Translations under genes and position numbers: made by a program
Notes under the pieces: generated by a model
Database searches by the model: none
Seen by the model: the letters and a program-made list of their open reading frames with translations, nothing else
Told to the model about the DNA's origin: nothing
In this document: positions 3,311-49,759 of the stretch, piece by piece
Numbering within the stretch: position 1 is the stretch's first letter
Layout: each line of letters opens with the position of its first letter
Assembly: GCA_000996355.1 (NCBI GenBank)
Contig: LCAH01000003.1
Span: forward strand, 4,228 to 68,227
Direction: 5' to 3'
Length of the DNA stretch: 64,000 nt
Source: Candidatus Uhrbacteria bacterium GW2011_GWC2_41_11
GTDB lineage: Bacteria > Patescibacteriota > Patescibacteriia > UBA9934 > GWF2-40-263

Positions 3311-3387
3311 TGGTGGGCCCGGATGGACTCGAACCATCGACTCCCGAGGTATAAGCTCGGTGCTCTAACCAACTGAGCTACAGGCCC
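3311..3387 (-). tRNA. tRNA-Ile (anticodon UAU), CCA encoded
   Basis: Reverse complement gives gggcctgtagctcagttggttagagcaccgagCTTATACctcgggagtcgatggttcgagtccatccgggcccacca. The anticodon loop cuUAUac reads AUA. Confidence 0.7.
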
Positions 3388-6578: not shown

Positions 6579-7268
6579 TTACTTGAATCTTTTTTCGGCC
6601 GCCGCCAGATCAACTTCCGTGTATCGACCGAAGTACTTTGTGATGTTTTTCAAATCTCGATCGAGGATGTTGCGTGCATCAGGGTGTAGTCTTTTGTCGA
6701 TTGATTGCGGAAAGTCGATGATAAACGGCTTGGATTTCCACCACAGGACGTTGTACGGAGAAAGATCGGCGTGGACGATTCCGTGCTCCCAAAAAATAAG
6801 TATACTCTCGATGATCGAGTGATAGGCAGTGGCCGCTTCATTTTGGTCAAGCTCGATATCAATCAATCGAGGCGCAACTATACCCTCATCTCCCAACAAT
6901 TCCATAAAAATAGAGTCGTCGATCTGGAGAATCGGTCGAGGAATAGCAGCCCCGGCTTCGTGAAATTTTTGGAGCATAAAAAACTCCCGCTTAATCCAAT
7001 TTTTCTGTTTCAATTTCCTCCCAAACTTGTTCTTCTTCGCAACCGCTCTCCGTGCCGACGGGCTTTTGTAAAATTTGCCAGCAAGATATTCGTAGGCATT
7101 CTGGAAACTCCGTTCCTCTGGATTTTTATACACCTTCATAGCAACTATCTTGCCGTCGAGCATGGCACGAAAGACAGCAGCCTCCTTACCTGATTTGATA
7201 TGTGAAACAACCGCTACGGTATGACCGAAGGCTTTGGCCTGCTCAATAATTTGAGAGAAATCTTGCAT
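6579..7268 (-). CDS. RIO-type serine/threonine protein kinase (RIO1-like)
   Basis: 229 aa. The catalytic loop HADLSPYN matches the RIO HGDLSEYN signature, together with the lysine region VAMKVYK. Local GC is visibly higher than the genome background. Confidence 0.65.
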   Translation of the reverse strand: MQDFSQIIEQAKAFGHTVAVVSHIKSGKEAAVFRAMLDGKIVAMKVYKNPEERSFQNAYEYLAGKFYKSPSARRAVAKKNKFGRKLKQKNWIKREFFMLQKFHEAGAAIPRPILQIDDSIFMELLGDEGIVAPRLIDIELDQNEAATAYHSIIESILIFWEHGIVHADLSPYNVLWWKSKPFIIDFPQSIDKRLHPDARNILDRDLKNITKYFGRYTEVDLAAAEKRFK

Positions 7269-7281
7269 GTTCGTTTCCTTT

Positions 7282-8336
7282 TTACTTCAATATATAGTAC
7301 GTCGCGCGACCCTTTCCAATTTTCAAGATCATTTTCAGTTTCGTTAATTTCTGCAAATGAAACTGAGCCGTGCGCCTTGGACATCGCACTACATCAATAA
7401 CATCGGTCACCGTAATTCTTCCGACGGTTTCCATGAAATCAAGAATGGCGATTTGATCCTTATCGAGAAAAACTTGTGAATTGATATCCGTATCAATCTT
7501 TTTTACCGCGAGATTCATGACGGTATGTTTGACCTGATCGATTTCTTCCTTGAATCCTTTCACAAAGTATTCGAGCCAGGGAGTGAAGTCTATTCGACGT
7601 CCCTTGTAGTTTTTACCAATGTTGATTGCGGTGTAATAAGCAGACCGATCGGTGTTATAGTAGTCCTCGATCGCAGAGAGACGACGAAAATCGTATCCTC
7701 GCTGATAAAGCACTAGCGTTGCGAGCGCCCTAGCCGTTCGGCCATTGCCATCGACAAACGGATGAATGGCGGCGATTTCCTGATGAACAATCCCTGCCGC
7801 AATGACAGGGTCGATTCCTTCGGTTTCATTATTTTGCATCCAAGCGATCAGTGCATTCATGAGCCAAGCGACCTCTTTTGCCTCCGGTGCAGTGTAGACA
7901 ATTTCCCGCCGACCGTCACGATAGTTTTTCGCAATATAAACGGGTCCTGGACGATAATGACCTGATACATCTGCCCGAAGCGTCTTGTTCGTGACGTATT
8001 TGTGGATTTGAAGAATAATTCGCTTACTGATCGTCTGTTTCTTTTCGACAACGCTTTCAATGTACTTCAAAGTTTTAAGGTAATTCTCGACCTCGTAAAT
8101 ATCTCTTTCAGGTGCATCGATTTTCTTTCGATCTGCCAACGCTTCGACCTCGCGCATGTTCAGCCGATTTCCTTCAATAGCCGTCGAACTATGGGTCAAC
8201 GGATCAATGCCTGACGACGCAAACGCAATTCCTGTTTTGGCAAAAGACGTGCCCGCTCAATGACAGCCCTCCCTTCCGCGATGGTCGTCAGCATCTGGAC
8301 AATTTTATCCGTCAGATGATATTCAGGATTAAACAT
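7282..8336 (-). pseudogene. Fic/DOC family protein (class II, SxxxEGN inhibitory motif) with apparent frameshift
   Basis: The N-terminal 49 codons (MFNPEYHLTDKIVQMLTTIAEGRAVIERARLLPKQELRLRRQALIR*) run from ATG 8336 to a TGA stop. The remainder (THSSTAIEGN...HPFVDGNGRTAR...C-terminal wHTH) continues in another frame from about 8199. Together they form a canonical ~355-aa Fic protein. Confidence 0.6.
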
Positions 8337-19498: not shown

Positions 19499-21000
<1,502 letters not shown>

Positions 21001-21240
21001 AGGGACATTGAGAAGTTTATCTTCTCCATTCTCGGTCGAGATGAGCCTCTTCGGAGACTAATCATTGTTACGAAGACGACGTTGCAATCGCACAACATGA
21101 CAAAATCGAAAAACTCCTCTGATTCGGGGAGTTTTTCTTTATCCAAATACTTGCCTTCTTTAAGAGAAATTGATACACTCATTGCACAAAAAATGGTTGA
21201 CCTCCCTCAATTTGAACACGTGGAAGGTCTAAAATTTTAC

Positions 21241-21317
21241 GGGCGTGTAGCTCAGGTGGTTAGAGCGCAACACTGATAATGTTGAGGTCCCTGGTTCGAG
21301 TCCAGGCACGCCCACCA
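21241..21317 (+). tRNA. tRNA-Ile (anticodon GAU), CCA encoded
   Basis: gggcgtgtagctcaggtggttagagcgcaacactGATaatgttgaggtccctggttcgagtccaggcacgcccacca. Confidence 0.9.
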
Positions 21318-21334
21318 CGAAACCAATAAATTTT

Positions 21335-21796
21335 ATGAATCTGACTTTCCTGGAAACATGTTTTCGTCTCATCCTTGCAACGATTTTGTGCGGGGTTATT
21401 GGATATGAACGTGAGTATCGGCACAAACCAGCAGGTATCCGAACAAACATGCTTGTGGGATTAGGGACAGCAACCATGACTATTGTTTCCATCGAAATTA
21501 CCCAATTTGCCGGACCATCAAATGTGATAGATATTTCTCGGATTGCGTCAACAATTCTCACTGGGATTGGTTTTATTGGAGCAGGAACTATCATCCATTC
21601 TCATGACGGGGTCAAAGGATTGACCACTGCGGCGAGCATTTGGGTGGTTGCCGCAATTGGATTGGCTGTGGGAATGGGATTTTATCTTCTTGCGAGTATC
21701 ACCACGATTCTAGCCTTGATCACATTAGCCGTGATCCGAAAATTCCCTATTTCGGAAGAAAAATCTGAAGGAAAAGAGGAAAAAATGCCTGGGTAG
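21335..21796 (+). CDS. mgtC: MgtC/SapB-family membrane protein
   Basis: GYEREYRHKPAGIRTNMLVGLG...ILTGIGFIGAGTII...GLTTAASIWVVAAIGLAVGMGFY matches the MgtC N-domain consensus. The 3' end overlaps tRNA-Phe by ~10 nt. No obvious SD. Confidence 0.65.
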   Translation: MNLTFLETCFRLILATILCGVIGYEREYRHKPAGIRTNMLVGLGTATMTIVSIEITQFAGPSNVIDISRIASTILTGIGFIGAGTIIHSHDGVKGLTTAASIWVVAAIGLAVGMGFYLLASITTILALITLAVIRKFPISEEKSEGKEEKMPG

Positions 21797-21861
21797 CTCA
21801 GTGGTAGAGCAGAGGACTGAAAATCCTCGTGTCGTCAGTTCAATTCTGACCCCAGGCACCA
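21787..21861 (+). tRNA. tRNA-Phe (anticodon GAA), CCA encoded
   Basis: gcctgggtagctcagtggtagagcagaggactGAAaatcctcgtgtcgtcagttcaattctgaccccaggcacca. Confidence 0.9.
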
Positions 21862-46321: not shown

Positions 46322-47494
46322 CTATGTGCGCAAAATAGTAGATAAAATCATCCCAAGTGTTGCCCAATCAATTTCATTTTGATGAGGAGAAAGAAGATCA
46401 GAAATTTTCCAGAGTTCAATATAGGTTCGTTCTGAGTCGTTTATGACCCCGTGTACCTTTTGTTCGCGTGCCTGTTCCTGTAAACAGAAAAATTCATCAT
46501 CTGATAACTTAACGGAAAATAGATGAGCCTTATGTGCAGATAATGTTCCAGACGTTTGTCTGCTTTCGTGACAACAGACACGGCTTGGATCAAGAGATAA
46601 TCCAATTTCTTCCTTTACTTCCTCCAATGCTAAAGACAAAAAATCTTGAGGAATAAAAGAAGATCCTCCTGGAATTTCATGAATACATCCATCAGACGTA
46701 CTTGCAGGACTTCGAAATTCTCGGATAAAAACAACATCCGTATCTAAAAATGATTCAGTCTGATGATACAAAACAACAACGGAAATATCCGGACGTGCAA
46801 TGACTACTTCATTTGTTTTATGTCTATCCTCACTTGCAATGTAAATATCAACATGAAGAACCCAAAAAAATAAAGTATGTCGTTCATCTCCAGCAAAAAA
46901 TGCCCATTCCTGTTTTGCTCCATCCAGTCGATTTCCTACTTTTTTCTGTGTTTGATACCACTGTTGAAAAGAAGGAGCCTGCCAAATATGAAAAGGGATG
47001 TTGCATTCTCCCCCGGATCGAAGAGTCCCTTCACCGATTTTAGCGACTGCGGTTGCAATCGTTTCAGACAATGTATGATTTTGTGGAATAAATAACCGAT
47101 CTGCATAAAAACTCAGATATCGATTATGGTCAGATTCCGGAGGAAATCCCAAAACGACTTTTCCAGATCTTTCCCAACGACCGAATTCAATATTGGTTGT
47201 GAGACCAGGAAGCGTTTTCATGTTACGCGGGATCCAAAACAGAATGATGTCGGAACGATTGAGGGCTTCATCTTCCCAGCGAACCTGATCCTCAAAAGAA
47301 GGCCATTTTTCATCACGTGGTTCTGGAACAAAAACAACTCCTTCATATCCTTGCTCTTCCAAAATACGAAGTGCTTCCAAACGCCAAGAAACAACATCCG
47401 ATGTTCTTGATGTTGGACCTGCTAAAAAAAGAGATTGTTTGAATGCGGTTGGAAGAGGATCAGTCGAATAAACAGGAATCATAAAATATTTCAA
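46322..47494 (-). CDS. fusion protein: nucleoside 2-deoxyribosyltransferase/DNPH1-like N-glycosidase domain + Nudix hydrolase domain
   Basis: N-domain: LFLAGPTSR ... SDIILFWIP ... LTTNIEFGRW resemble the N-terminal Rossmann and catalytic-Glu motifs of nucleoside 2-deoxyribosyltransferases. C-domain: Nudix box GGSSFIPQDFLSLALEEVKEEIGL. Confidence 0.55.
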   Translation of the reverse strand: MKYFMIPVYSTDPLPTAFKQSLFLAGPTSRTSDVVSWRLEALRILEEQGYEGVVFVPEPRDEKWPSFEDQVRWEDEALNRSDIILFWIPRNMKTLPGLTTNIEFGRWERSGKVVLGFPPESDHNRYLSFYADRLFIPQNHTLSETIATAVAKIGEGTLRSGGECNIPFHIWQAPSFQQWYQTQKKVGNRLDGAKQEWAFFAGDERHTLFFWVLHVDIYIASEDRHKTNEVVIARPDISVVVLYHQTESFLDTDVVFIREFRSPASTSDGCIHEIPGGSSFIPQDFLSLALEEVKEEIGLSLDPSRVCCHESRQTSGTLSAHKAHLFSVKLSDDEFFCLQEQAREQKVHGVINDSERTYIELWKISDLLSPHQNEIDWATLGMILSTILRT

Positions 47495-47579
47495 AACCTT
47501 AGCTCAAATGTATCTTAATATACTTTCTCCATTTTTTACACTTTCTATCTTTATAAATACTCATAATTGTCACATACTA

Positions 47580-47608
47580 TTGACAAAATATTTTAATTGT
47601 GATATTCT
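47580..47608 (+). promoter_or_regulatory. near-consensus sigma70 promoter with extended -10
   Basis: TTGACA, a 17-nt spacer, then TGaTATTCT. Followed by AGGAGG 7 nt before the ATG at 47675. Confidence 0.6.
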
Positions 47609-47674
47609 TAACCGTTCGTTCTTTGGTCGTTATTTCAAAAAAATGGGTCCAAATGACCCACACAGGAGGTTTTC

Positions 47675-48505
47675 ATGTTTCACGCGACTGCCCCACGCCA
47701 CGAAACCACCAATTTTGTCGCTCTCGTCAGCGACCTCGAAGGGTTTCTTTTCAACGGAATCCTCGGTAGGTCACTAACCAAACGACAATATCCCGCGATC
47801 GACAGCGAGTTGATCGCGGCGCGACGAGCCTTCCGCAACGATCCGACCGGTCTCGAGGCGTTCAACAATGCCCGATTCTCGGCCGGCGAGGATGAACTCG
47901 AAATCTACCAGGTTTCGAGCGATATCGTTCTTGCCTGGTACGCCGAGTATCAGGCCGAGCAGGCTCACAAAGCCGCGGAGCTGGCCGAGATCGAGGCAGC
48001 CAAGCAGCTTGCTGCTGAAACCGCTCGAATCGAGGCCGAAAAGCTCGAGGCTGAGCAGAAGGCTGCTGAAGCCAAGGTTGAGCAGGAACGGCAGGCGAAG
48101 ATGCGTCGCAACGCCCTGCTCCAGGCCGGAGCCGTCTGTACGTGTGGCAACTGTCACACGCAGATGGTTGTCCGATATGGACGTTTGCCGTCCGTCGGAT
48201 TCATGCGGCAAGAGCTCGGTCGCGAGCCGACTGTGGCGGATCTGACGAAGTTCGTCCGGTTCGCAGGTCACGCTGGTTCGCGAGGATATCCGTTCGAAGA
48301 TATCCTCGACGAGGTTCTCTCAAGTGAGAATCAGGCGACCCCGGCTGCTCCGAAATCGACGGTGCAGGCAAAGCAGCCGGCGGCCGCCCAGTCGATGTTC
48401 CGCAAATCAACCACCACCCCCCCGGCCAAGGCTGAAAAACCGCGGTCGGTCAGTGGATTCGGAAGCCTGGGGAGTCTCTTCCCCACGGTTGCCAAAATTT
48501 TCTAA
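47675..48505 (+). CDS. GC-rich (~60%) hypothetical coiled-coil protein with CxCGxC motif; likely horizontally acquired
   Basis: 276-aa ORF whose composition is very different from its flanks. A/E/K-rich heptad segment and CTCGNCH. Several overlapping antisense ORFs are open-frame artefacts of the high GC. Confidence 0.55.
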   Translation: MFHATAPRHETTNFVALVSDLEGFLFNGILGRSLTKRQYPAIDSELIAARRAFRNDPTGLEAFNNARFSAGEDELEIYQVSSDIVLAWYAEYQAEQAHKAAELAEIEAAKQLAAETARIEAEKLEAEQKAAEAKVEQERQAKMRRNALLQAGAVCTCGNCHTQMVVRYGRLPSVGFMRQELGREPTVADLTKFVRFAGHAGSRGYPFEDILDEVLSSENQATPAAPKSTVQAKQPAAAQSMFRKSTTTPPAKAEKPRSVSGFGSLGSLFPTVAKIF

Positions 48506-48510
48506 AACCT

Positions 48511-48552
48511 AAGTCGTCCGTGCAGTTTCTTGCATCGGACGACTTTTGTTTT
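48511..48552 (+). terminator. rho-independent terminator of GC-rich gene
   Basis: agtcgtccgtgcagtttcttgcatcggacgact followed by TTTTGTTTT. Confidence 0.65.
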
Positions 48553-48588
48553 AATAAGAATTTTTTCATTTTGCCCATTTTGGGCTTA

Positions 48589-48656
48589 CCATGCACCATC
48601 TGGTGCATGGCTTACGGGGACCCCAGTTTTTCTCGCTGTACTTGATTGAGTACAGC
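48589..48656. repeat. two perfect palindromes in intergenic region
   Basis: ccatgcacca-tc-tggtgcatgg (10-bp arms) and gctgtact-tgattg-agtacagc (8-bp arms). Confidence 0.5.
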
Positions 48657-48683
48657 TCGATAAAACTCTATTATATATAAAAA

Positions 48684-48704
48684 CTTGGTGCTGATTACAC
48701 CAAG
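48684..48704 (-). terminator. terminator hairpin of sigma-factor gene, overlapping its stop codon
   Basis: cttggtgctgattacaccaag with the TAA in the loop. T-run on the minus strand (tttttatatata). Confidence 0.55.
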
Positions 48705-49759
48705 CTTACAATTTTCTGAAGTTCCTCTGCGGTTCGAATGAGGCGAAACATTCTTGCCCGAGGCACACCCGTTATCCTCTCAAGTCTCTTTAACTCAAGA
48801 TTTTCTATTTGTCGAACACGTTCTTTTGAAAGATCAAAACGATCTCCCAAACTTTTTAGTGTTTCTTTTTCATACCCAGGTAACCCGAGCCGATGTCGAA
48901 CAATAACCGCTGAACGTTCATGAAATTTGGAAATGCATTGATCAATTCTTCCGAGTTCCAGAAGAATTTCTTCCAGACGTTGTTTTACCTCCATCCAAAC
49001 GTCCTGCGGACAAACTTGCGGATCAGGAATCATATCGTAGAGCCACGAGGTGTCCGAGGTATCTTCTGCATGAGGAGAAGAGTCTAAAGAAACAACATGT
49101 TCATTCAACATAATCAATATTCGCTCCACATCCGCACGTTCAGGAGACTTTTTCTTTTTGACTGGTTTGTCTGTTGATTTCCATCCAGTCTTTTTCCAAC
49201 GTTCTTCAGCCTTATGTTGCTGTTCCTCTAAAACAACATGAAGAATTTCCTCTGAACTTGGATTTCTTCCCAAGTGTTGAAATAACCGTTGCTGAATGAC
49301 CTGAACCTCGAAAAAGACACGCTGTATTCCAGATGGACATCGGATGAGACCTCCATTCCATGCTTCTTTGGATTGAGCCCGAATAATCATGGCGCGAATC
49401 CACCAATCAGCGTATGTCCCAAAATGTACCTCACGACGGAAATCAAATCTTGTTGCAGCAACGAGCAAACCAATGTTTCCCTCTTGAATACGATCCATAA
49501 ATGGAAGACGATGACCAAATCGTCCGGCAATATAAATCACAAGAGGAAGATTATGAACAGCCACTTTCCATCGTAGACGAATATTTTCCTCAGGCGATGA
49601 TTCCTCCGCTTCGACAAAACAAGCCTGCTCTTCTTGAAAAGATAGACGTCGATAGTGACTCATAGATCTTTTATATCGAATAAAAAGATCCGAGGTTTCG
49701 AAATTTTTGAGGTCTTCCTTATCAATTTCTTCCGAAAACATGACAATTGTTTGATCCAT
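48695..49759 (-). CDS. RNA polymerase sigma-70 family factor (RpoD-like; regions 2-4, K-rich insertion)
   Basis: Region 2 IYIAGRFGHRLPFMDRIQEGNIGLLVAATRFDFRREVHFGTYADWWIR. Region 4 HTH LKSLGDRFDLSKERVRQIENLELKRL. ATG at 49759 with a GGAGG RBS. Confidence 0.75.
   Translation of the reverse strand: MDQTIVMFSEEIDKEDLKNFETSDLFIRYKRSMSHYRRLSFQEEQACFVEAEESSPEENIRLRWKVAVHNLPLVIYIAGRFGHRLPFMDRIQEGNIGLLVAATRFDFRREVHFGTYADWWIRAMIIRAQSKEAWNGGLIRCPSGIQRVFFEVQVIQQRLFQHLGRNPSSEEILHVVLEEQQHKAEERWKKTGWKSTDKPVKKKKSPERADVERILIMLNEHVVSLDSSPHAEDTSDTSWLYDMIPDPQVCPQDVWMEVKQRLEEILLELGRIDQCISKFHERSAVIVRHRLGLPGYEKETLKSLGDRFDLSKERVRQIENLELKRLERITGVPRARMFRLIRTAEELQKIVSLV

Follow-up and report, generated by a model that had tools for sequence, protein, structure and literature searches.

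A GC-rich orphan gene with an over-folded mRNA and a small Cys3-His domain in an AT-rich groundwater Uhrbacteria genome

Introduction

Single-gene compositional islands and ORFans are the closest described counterparts of the gene considered here: they deviate from their genome in GC, GC3 (GC at third codon positions), codon usage and tetranucleotides, are restricted to a lineage, belong to no family and carry their own expression signals. Most acquired genes and ORFans are short and rich in AT. Phage morons likewise comprise one gene with its own strong promoter and intrinsic terminator and a composition unlike that of its surroundings. Here we describe open reading frame (ORF) 47675..48505 (+ strand) in a 64,000-nucleotide (nt) stretch of contig LCAH01000003.1 (the whole stretch is called the window below) from an uncultured groundwater bacterium, Candidatus Uhrbacteria, of the candidate phyla radiation (CPR). 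The genomes of CPR bacteria (Patescibacteria) are tiny, and the organisms presumably live attached to other cells; a foreign gene that one of them retains is a clue to its partners, its conflicts or the way it acquires DNA. Gene transfer into groundwater Patescibacteria has been documented, with donors that often went unrecovered (PMC12455944). We favour, with a probability of about 0.55, the reading that the ORF is a laterally acquired, lineage-restricted gene that is now self-contained and probably strongly and stably expressed, and that it encodes a helical, zinc-knuckle, basic-tailed and probably nucleic-acid-binding protein.

Results

Base composition of the ORF

A sequence-only reading of this DNA had singled out a GC-rich outlier gene, and computation of sliding-window GC, codon usage and tetranucleotides bore this out. 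GC content was 59.2% in the ORF, slightly below the 60–64% of the original hand count, versus 39.1% in the rest of the window; the background had been put too low, at ~35%, and is 39.3% for the window as a whole. Across the three codon positions GC was 0.646, 0.466 and 0.664, and this GC3 of 0.664 compares with 0.270 ± 0.066 for the 46 other ORFs of at least 150 amino acids (aa), the runner-up reaching 0.513. Measured against the same 46 ORFs, z-scores were 6.1 for GC, 6.0 for GC3 and -5.9 for the codon-usage score. When the window was scanned in 831-nt segments (mean GC 0.393, s.d. 0.042), GC peaked at 0.593 at position 47650, and no segment was further from the window in tetranucleotide composition than the ORF. 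Only one other region exceeded 0.5 GC, the 16S rRNA gene at 19499-20998. The step in GC matched the start and stop codons, with values of 0.22 in the promoter region, 0.41 in the 5' untranslated region (5' UTR) and 0.41 in the 3' flank. Because native highly expressed genes (S6, the S18/SSB region and the EF-P region) have a GC3 of ~0.28-0.30, the bias of the ORF does not reflect expression-linked codon usage, and this source of high GC3 was rejected. By compositional definition (GC, GC3, codon usage and oligonucleotides), the ORF qualifies as a horizontally transferred gene.

Expression signals and organisation of the gene unit

The gene, its signals and the adjoining intergenic region are laid out as follows.

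47580..47608, + strand: sigma-70-type promoter, with -35 TTGACA (47580-85), 17-nt spacer, TG (47600-01) and -10 TATTCT (47603-08).
47609..47674, + strand: 5' UTR, AT-rich (41% GC), with a short hairpin and the Shine-Dalgarno sequence AGGAGG.
47675..48505, + strand: protein-coding gene, 276 aa, characterised by composition, coding tests and RNA structure.
47675..47887, + strand: N-terminal region, aa 1-71, the most diverged block, with in-frame 3-nt and 6-nt indels and low AlphaFold2 confidence.
47888..48130, + strand: long acidic A/E/K/Q-rich predicted alpha-helix, aa 72-152, net charge -8, AlphaFold2 predicted local distance difference test (pLDDT) up to 97.
48131..48331, + strand: putative Cys3-His domain, aa 153-219, shared with the distant relative P0004 and near-identical between alleles.
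48332..48502, + strand: predicted disordered, basic S/T/P/A/K-rich tail, aa 220-276, isoelectric point 11.3, net charge +7, ending in GFGSLGSLFPTVAKIF.
48511..48552, + strand: intrinsic terminator, a 14-base-pair (bp) bulged stem with a 4-nt loop (predicted fold), then TTTTGTTTT.
48556..48680, no strand assigned: intergenic region, possibly part of the gene unit, that folds into three hairpins (-43.7 kcal/mol, z -6.2).

The near-consensus promoter, the AGGAGG and the dedicated terminator claimed by the sequence-only reading were all present. The promoter agrees with the consensus at 10 of 12 positions, carries the extended -10 TG and is unique within the window; it is the same in a second allele of the gene, with two single-base differences nearby (47628 and 47644). 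AGGAGG (47664-69) is spaced 5 nt from the ATG. The terminator stem-loop, an inverted repeat identical in both alleles, has a predicted energy of -26.9 kcal/mol (z -7.9) and is followed by UUUUGUUUU. With these three elements, the gene unit is transcriptionally self-contained. Within the 5' UTR, an A-run precedes a hairpin (GGGTC-N5-GACCC, 47644-47659), while the 5' UTR as a whole folds no better than shuffled sequences (z -0.1). Read on the minus strand (47643-47661), the same hairpin with its T-run scores as a terminator, which could halt antisense transcription toward the promoter region of the divergent Nudix gene.

The intergenic region at 48556-48680 lies between the terminator of the gene and that of the sigma-factor gene, and its structure varies between strains. 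A 39-nt block after 48659 is absent from the window and present in other strains. In one contig, L002 (1040-1130), it is a perfect inverted copy of 48556-48581, yielding 26-bp inverted repeats around ~96 bp; in L010-L018 the copy is imperfect. Contig ends from at least eight assemblies fall at 48568-48660, and co-existing alleles together with this 39-nt indel would explain assembly breaks at the gene edges. A multicopy repeat or miniature inverted-repeat transposable element as the cause of the breaks was rejected, the arms and the palindrome being unique in the 64-kilobase (kb) window. The region may be an element prone to inversion or hairpin formation, or it may encode a small RNA.

RNA structure of the transcript

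The transcript folded to -430 kcal/mol, compared with -343 ± 7 for dinucleotide shuffles (z -11.8). For the ORF, the excess persisted against synonymous-codon shuffles that kept both protein and codon usage (z -7.5), against codon-order permutation (z -6.8), and against a dinucleotide-preserving synonymous shuffle, whether applied throughout (z -4.7) or limited to 40-codon blocks (z -4.6); the second allele gave z -6.9. The signal was stronger in sense (z -9.5) than in antisense (z -5.7), and controls comprising native neighbours, another GC-rich coding fragment and the ORF of P0004 ranged from +0.2 to -3.0. Excess structure ran along the whole ORF and peaked at 48035-48274, by the Cys/His domain (local z -3.8 to -4.9), with little at 47990-48139 (z -0.4). 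Substitutions between the alleles were rarer at positions predicted to be paired, which held 29 of 59 of them compared with 69% of positions overall. A search of Rfam 15 gave no match at the gathering score, only chance-level matches with E up to 1. Taken together, these data demonstrate that the sense RNA is far more stably folded than the protein sequence and codon usage require.

Coding status and allelic divergence

The second allele (279 aa, 91% aa identity) was found in JGI 3300037810 and ENA ERZ27249449, between the same neighbours. The differences between the two alleles fell 13/15/33 on the three codon positions, the ratio of nonsynonymous to synonymous divergence (dN/dS) was 0.22, and both indels, of 3 nt and 6 nt, kept the frame. 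The ORF encodes a protein under purifying selection. An antisense ORF of 165 aa received no such support, the allele differences having the opposite periodicity.

Between strains carrying the two alleles, the gene differs by ~8% and the flanks by 0.7% (99.3% identity over 3.8 kb upstream and 1.0 kb downstream), so that divergence in the gene is ~10-fold higher and mosaic in pattern. By codon block, dS was 0.46 (1-60), 0.13 (60-155), 0.02 (155-225, the Cys/His domain) and 0.32 (225-279). The C-terminal block had a dN/dS of 0.08, and the Cys3-His domain is identical between the alleles apart from one synonymous difference. GC3 was 0.59-0.73 in every block of both alleles, even where dS reached 0.3-0.46, versus 0.27 in the host. 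Targeted hypermutation of the kind driven by diversity-generating retroelements was rejected, as the spectrum was ordinary and transition-dominated, with no adenine bias. If mutation is biased toward AT, GC-rich DNA could diverge faster, but by our estimate only ~1.5-fold, which makes it likelier that old alleles were kept or exchanged by recombination. Since the diverged alleles both keep a GC3 of ~0.66 within near-identical flanks, high GC may be maintained rather than merely undecayed. The proposal that the gene was acquired recently is accordingly doubtful, given two alleles so deeply diverged (dS up to 0.46) in flanks that are 99.3% identical.

Protein anatomy and relatives

All three cysteines of the protein lie within the Cys3-His domain, in a CxCGxCH at residues 155-161, as part of the motif C155-x-C157-G-x-C160-H161 ... 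ELGREP ... DL..FVR..GH199 ... RGYPF. Inspection of the sequence revealed neither a signal peptide nor a membrane segment. AlphaFold2 returned a pLDDT of 58 for the whole protein, with confidence in the helix only, and of 48 for the domain with a three-row alignment. The predicted helix at aa 72-152 could form a coiled coil or stand alone as one stable helix; its heptad pattern is weak. Of the coiled coil, CxCGxC knuckle and S/T/P-rich tail proposed earlier, the knuckle, a helix and the tail stood, and the coiled coil became one of two options.

Almost no relatives of the 276-aa protein were found among ~15 billion known proteins. In 5.8 billion protein clusters its one cluster-mate was its own 91% allele, and an exhaustive phmmer search of 1.84 billion representatives returned its own fragment together with P0003 and P0004. 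The match to P0003, an RCC1-repeat protein (E 2.7e-8), was an artefact in which a short 'C..C.(x).HTQM' look-alike was summed over eight repeats. P0004 (432 aa) is 45% identical over aa 146-207, a 62-aa domain, and is the sole distant relative. The common block reads C-x-C-G-(x)-C ... P....M..ELGRxP...DL..FVR..GH...RGYxF, and C155, C157, C160 and H199 are all kept in P0004. Judged by this alignment, the shared block defines a small, previously undescribed putative domain with three conserved cysteines and one conserved histidine.

The statement that the protein belongs to no recognised family agreed with the database searches. Neither the whole protein nor any of its three parts had a credible match in Pfam, PHROG or NCBIfam; the best sub-threshold family matches, Tubulin-bind_CPAP (E 0.03), a PHROG zinc-finger family (E 0.04) and Sigma70_r3 (E 0.25), were not credible. 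The PADLOC anti-phage defence models matched neither the protein nor P0004, a PDB sequence search with the protein returned nothing, and nor did a word-indexed profile search with the three-sequence domain alignment. A tblastn search of phages gave a Paracoccus phage Rha/KilAC DNA-binding protein (E 0.5), which was rejected, its alignment leaving out the Cys, His and RGY motifs. Plasmid searches had no match for the protein or P0004, and scans of IMG/VR and JGI metagenomes with the protein, the domain alignment and P0004 were empty. The suggestion of a phage or plasmid origin consequently found no backing: no phage or plasmid relative, no donor and no adjoining mobility gene was detected. A literature search under the protein accessions and run ids also yielded nothing.

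P0004 is the only ORF (68% GC) of L005, a contig of 1691 nt and 64.5% GC from Logan SRR22387796. The first and last 14 nt of L005 are identical, and the contig may be a circle of ~1677 nt. The C-terminus of P0004 is basic. By minimum free energy, L005 folds strongly and is not rod-like. Neither L005 nor P0004 had a match in Rfam, Pfam, PHROG, phages, plasmids or IMG/VR; no ribozyme was detected, and P0004 had no other relatives.

Genomic context and independent assemblies

The gene lies between a nucleoside-deoxyribosyltransferase/Nudix gene (46322-47494, - strand) and the primary sigma-factor gene (48695-49759), with which it converges while retaining its own terminator. Upstream are genes for RecA, EF-P, S6/SSB/S18, a methyltransferase, an XerC-like recombinase and tRNA-Arg; downstream are those for the primary sigma factor, tRNA-His, a Gmad2/Germane protein, DNA polymerase I and Pol III delta. 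The XerC-like recombinase, ~3 kb upstream, is the nearest mobility gene, and the genes in between are native in composition. Flanking direct repeats were limited to 10-nt chance matches. The Nudix neighbour, a nucleoside 2-deoxyribosyltransferase-like domain fused to a Nudix region, has >1000 homologues scattered over CPR, Armatimonadota and others, the best among representative genomes being from an actinomycete (42%).

The exact protein occurs on 11 contigs, all with the same chromosomal DNA context, and two Logan assemblies (SRR29904084 and SRR3309152) match the window at 100% identity across the upstream junction. Assemblies made independently share the junctions, and so does the second allele, which rules out the chimeric assembly that the sequence-only reading had wished to exclude. 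In NCBI the protein is recorded as KKR87424.1 and KKR98379.1 ('hypothetical protein'), with accessions consecutive with both neighbours in two Candidatus Uhrbacteria metagenome-assembled genomes, whose sigma-factor records are named GW2011_GWF2_41_16 and GWA2_41_10. A later bin with the same neighbour gene is labelled Candidatus Schekmanbacteria GWA2_38_11 (OGL43292.1), giving one organism two phylum labels; either the Uhrbacteria- or the Schekmanbacteria-labelled bin is probably mislabelled or contaminated. A scan of GTDB representative genomes found no close locus.

Every contig spanning the locus carries the gene, with the exception of the aberrant L010 (NCBI LCAD01000010.1, Uhrbacteria 'UU31'), an older assembly. 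At L010:7105-7979 only 48260-48468 of the gene is retained, at 100% identity, and 48469-48589 is missing (a 121-nt deletion). Upstream stands a different, coding-like sequence of 560 nt (60.5% GC, GC3 0.74), out of frame with the gene, which had no relatives in IMG/VR or JGI metagenome scans. L010 is either a misassembly or a real structural variant, and a variant would mean repeated entry of GC-rich DNA here. In L009, an ENA contig that ends inside the gene, a 35-nt fold-back at the contig end (10259-10293) is the reverse complement of window positions 47921-47955; the site varies between strains, and the fold-back probably arose as an artefact of the assembly or the library.

Other features of the window

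At 6579-8199 (- strand), GC3 is 0.51 in a gene for a RIO1-type kinase (229 aa) and 0.48 in the adjacent gene for a Fic/DOC protein (305 aa), versus the window mean of 0.27; this pair also deviates in composition, though less strongly than the ORF, and may likewise have been acquired. The stretch 3311-3387 (- strand) encodes a tRNA-Ile whose anticodon, UAU, is uncommon in bacteria. At 19499-21861, genes for tRNA-Ile(GAU) and tRNA-Phe come after that for 16S rRNA; the window contains no 23S gene, so the rRNA genes look unlinked.

Discussion

In kind, this is a known object, a compositionally foreign orphan gene; what is unusual and unexplained is the structure of its mRNA and the way hypervariable alleles hold their GC. 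Under the acquisition that we favour, the source would be an unsampled high-GC donor, and the gene would now be fixed in one species-level CPR lineage (deposited as GW2011_GWF2_41_16 / GWA2_41_10). The promoter, ribosome-binding site and heavily paired GC-rich coding region would give an abundant, long-lived mRNA, and this in turn an abundant cytoplasmic protein; high expression is probable, as read from the consensus signals and the mRNA structure. Through its 80-residue helix the protein would probably self-associate or be spaced. One zinc ion would probably be bound by C155, C157 and C160 with H199 (or H161), and nucleic acid would probably be contacted by the helix-turn-like Cys/His domain and the basic tail, going by motif and charge. 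The variability at both ends suggests a role in genetic conflict, with a phage, a mobile element or a host cell, which is the weakest step in this chain.

Several observations weigh against this reading. The step in GC falls exactly at the start and stop codons, although transferred DNA normally brings GC-rich flanks along. The searches yielded no donor and no homologue in any high-GC organism, so that phylogeny does not document a transfer. Nor does the locus look like an integrated mobile element or genomic island, being a single gene with housekeeping flanks and no adjoining mobility gene. Outside the species, the closest homologues of the neighbouring gene are only ~55-56% identical, so that the genomes compared include no sibling in which an empty site could show. 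GC3 undiminished at a dS of 0.3-0.46 suits selection for GC or RNA structure at least equally well. No compensatory base-pair changes separate the two alleles, the only two compared. Finally, AlphaFold2 failed on the non-helical parts, and function is read only from composition and motifs.

Much of the same evidence can be arranged around the main alternative, a native or ancient gene whose high GC was created, and is maintained, by selection on the RNA for stability, half-life or an embedded RNA function, much as the rRNA and tRNA genes of AT-rich genomes are rich in GC. We consider this unlikely, while granting that it accounts well for a GC step that is exactly ORF-wide between AT-rich native signals, for structure that withstands strict nulls and is stronger on the sense strand, for the depletion of substitutions at predicted paired positions (29/59 vs 69%), for the absence of GC3 loss in allele segments with a dS of 0.3-0.46, and for the failure to find a donor; the only other GC peak in the window is, moreover, the 16S rRNA gene. 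If RNA-structure selection keeps GC high, composition says little about recent foreign origin. Yet GC3 is 0.66 throughout the ORF, even where structural excess is low (z -0.4 at 47990-48139), no covarying pairs were found, and no comparable native gene exists within the window. The sole distant relative, a 68% GC ORF on a 64.5% GC contig, points instead to a high-GC gene pool. Alternatively, the ORF might be an endogenised copy, or a dual-function RNA, of a small structured replicon (an RNA virus, a viroid-like or satellite agent, or a tiny circular DNA). The Cys3-His domain would then have belonged to the one protein of that element, and the RNA structure would be a legacy of the element or still serve it. 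ORF-wide RNA structure of such a kind has been described for RNA-virus genomes, and here it reaches z -7.5; the insert is limited to the ORF and lacks foreign flanks, and P0004 is the sole ORF of a 1691-nt contig whose identical 14-nt ends suggest a ~1.68-kb circle. That overlap is, however, unexpected for a circular contig from a 31-mer assembler. L005 also lacks a rod-like fold, matches no ribozyme or Rfam family, and has a synonymous-structure signal that is only weak (z -1.1 to -3.0). All 11 contigs with the window gene show the same chromosomal DNA context, and no reverse transcriptase was seen among the flanking genes (Pfam annotations over ~37.7-55.8 kb). We rate such an endogenised copy as very improbable. 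A bolder proposal, that the gene was domesticated or given a dual purpose from an unseen class of small GC-rich structured replicons, with L005 as a free-living relative and an RNA fold that has a function of its own beyond stabilising the transcript, strikes us as improbable; if true, a CPR bacterium would here be seen for the first time to have captured such an element in its chromosome.

Two further explanations are effectively excluded. A non-coding structured RNA gene, its long ORF an accident of high GC, would fit the strong transcript fold (z -11.8), and high GC does favour long open frames, several overlapping ORFs of 60-165 aa being present on both strands. By our estimate, however, the chance of 276 stop-free codons at this composition is ~1e-4, and the 13/15/33 distribution of differences, the dN/dS of 0.22, the indels of 3 and 6 nt, the GC1 > GC2 < GC3 pattern, an AGGAGG ideally spaced from the ATG and protein-level conservation with P0004 all speak for coding; there is no Rfam match, and differences in the 165-aa antisense ORF have the wrong periodicity. 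Least probable of all is that a piece of a high-GC organism was misjoined or entered as contamination. LCAD01000010.1 does join a different high-GC sequence inside the gene, with its 121-nt deletion, and many contigs break at or beside the gene. Against this, the same junctions recur from different samples and assemblers (Logan k=31, JGI, ENA megahit), the second allele has the same flanks, the junctions fall at a well-spaced ribosome-binding site and ATG and at the stop codon and terminator, and the breaks are what co-existing alleles and a 39-nt indel would yield.

Whichever origin applies, the protein family is undescribed, and the locus is a well-documented orphan, not a new mechanism. It is an unusually clean case, in which a single ORF of foreign composition combines strong native signals, a conserved protein, hypervariable ends and an over-folded mRNA. 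If structure is indeed what keeps GC high, a call of 'recent transfer' made from composition alone can be wrong; should the gene stem from an unsampled element, the Cys3-His domain is a handle for finding it.

Set beside the described systems, the gene resembles ORFan and single-gene compositional islands in its deviant GC, GC3, codon usage and tetranucleotides, its restriction to one lineage, its lack of a family and its own expression signals. It departs from them in being GC-rich in an AT-rich host, in borders free of mobility genes, repeats and a tRNA junction, in a foreign composition that ends where the ORF ends, and in combining exceptional mRNA structure with alleles that stay GC-rich despite deep divergence. 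Like a phage moron, it is one gene with its own strong promoter and intrinsic terminator and a composition unlike its surroundings, but it stands outside any prophage, among housekeeping neighbours, and has no PHROG, phage-record or IMG/VR match, and it is not classed as a moron.

Among protein systems, the long helical segment followed by a small Cys-rich site recalls DksA/TraR and the zinc-binding anti-sigma (ZAS) factors, and the gene adjoins a primary sigma-factor gene; a short 'ELGREPT' stretch also resembles sigma-70 region 3 (Sigma70_r3, E=0.25 over 17 residues). Unlike DksA/TraR, the protein does not match the DksA/TraR model of Pfam (no hit at E≤0.1) and has no CxxC-x17-CxxC, only three cysteines in a CxCxxC. 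Unlike ZAS factors, it lacks HxxxCxxC, and its gene converges on the sigma gene rather than being co-transcribed with it; it is assigned to neither group. H-NS and Lsr2-type nucleoid proteins are built in a similar order, with a small domain between an acidic, oligomerisation-like helical region and a basic P/A/K-rich tail, a likeness of layout only, as no sequence match to those families appears at E≤0.1. At the RNA level, synonymous sites arranged for pairing beyond the needs of the protein are reminiscent of the ordered structure of RNA viruses, and a ~0.9-kb single-ORF unit whose sole relative lies on a possibly circular 1.7-kb GC-rich contig recalls Obelisks and deltavirus-like agents, to whose known proteins no similarity was detected. 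In contrast to all of these agents, the gene is chromosomal DNA with a bacterial promoter and terminator, is not rod-like and carries no ribozymes.

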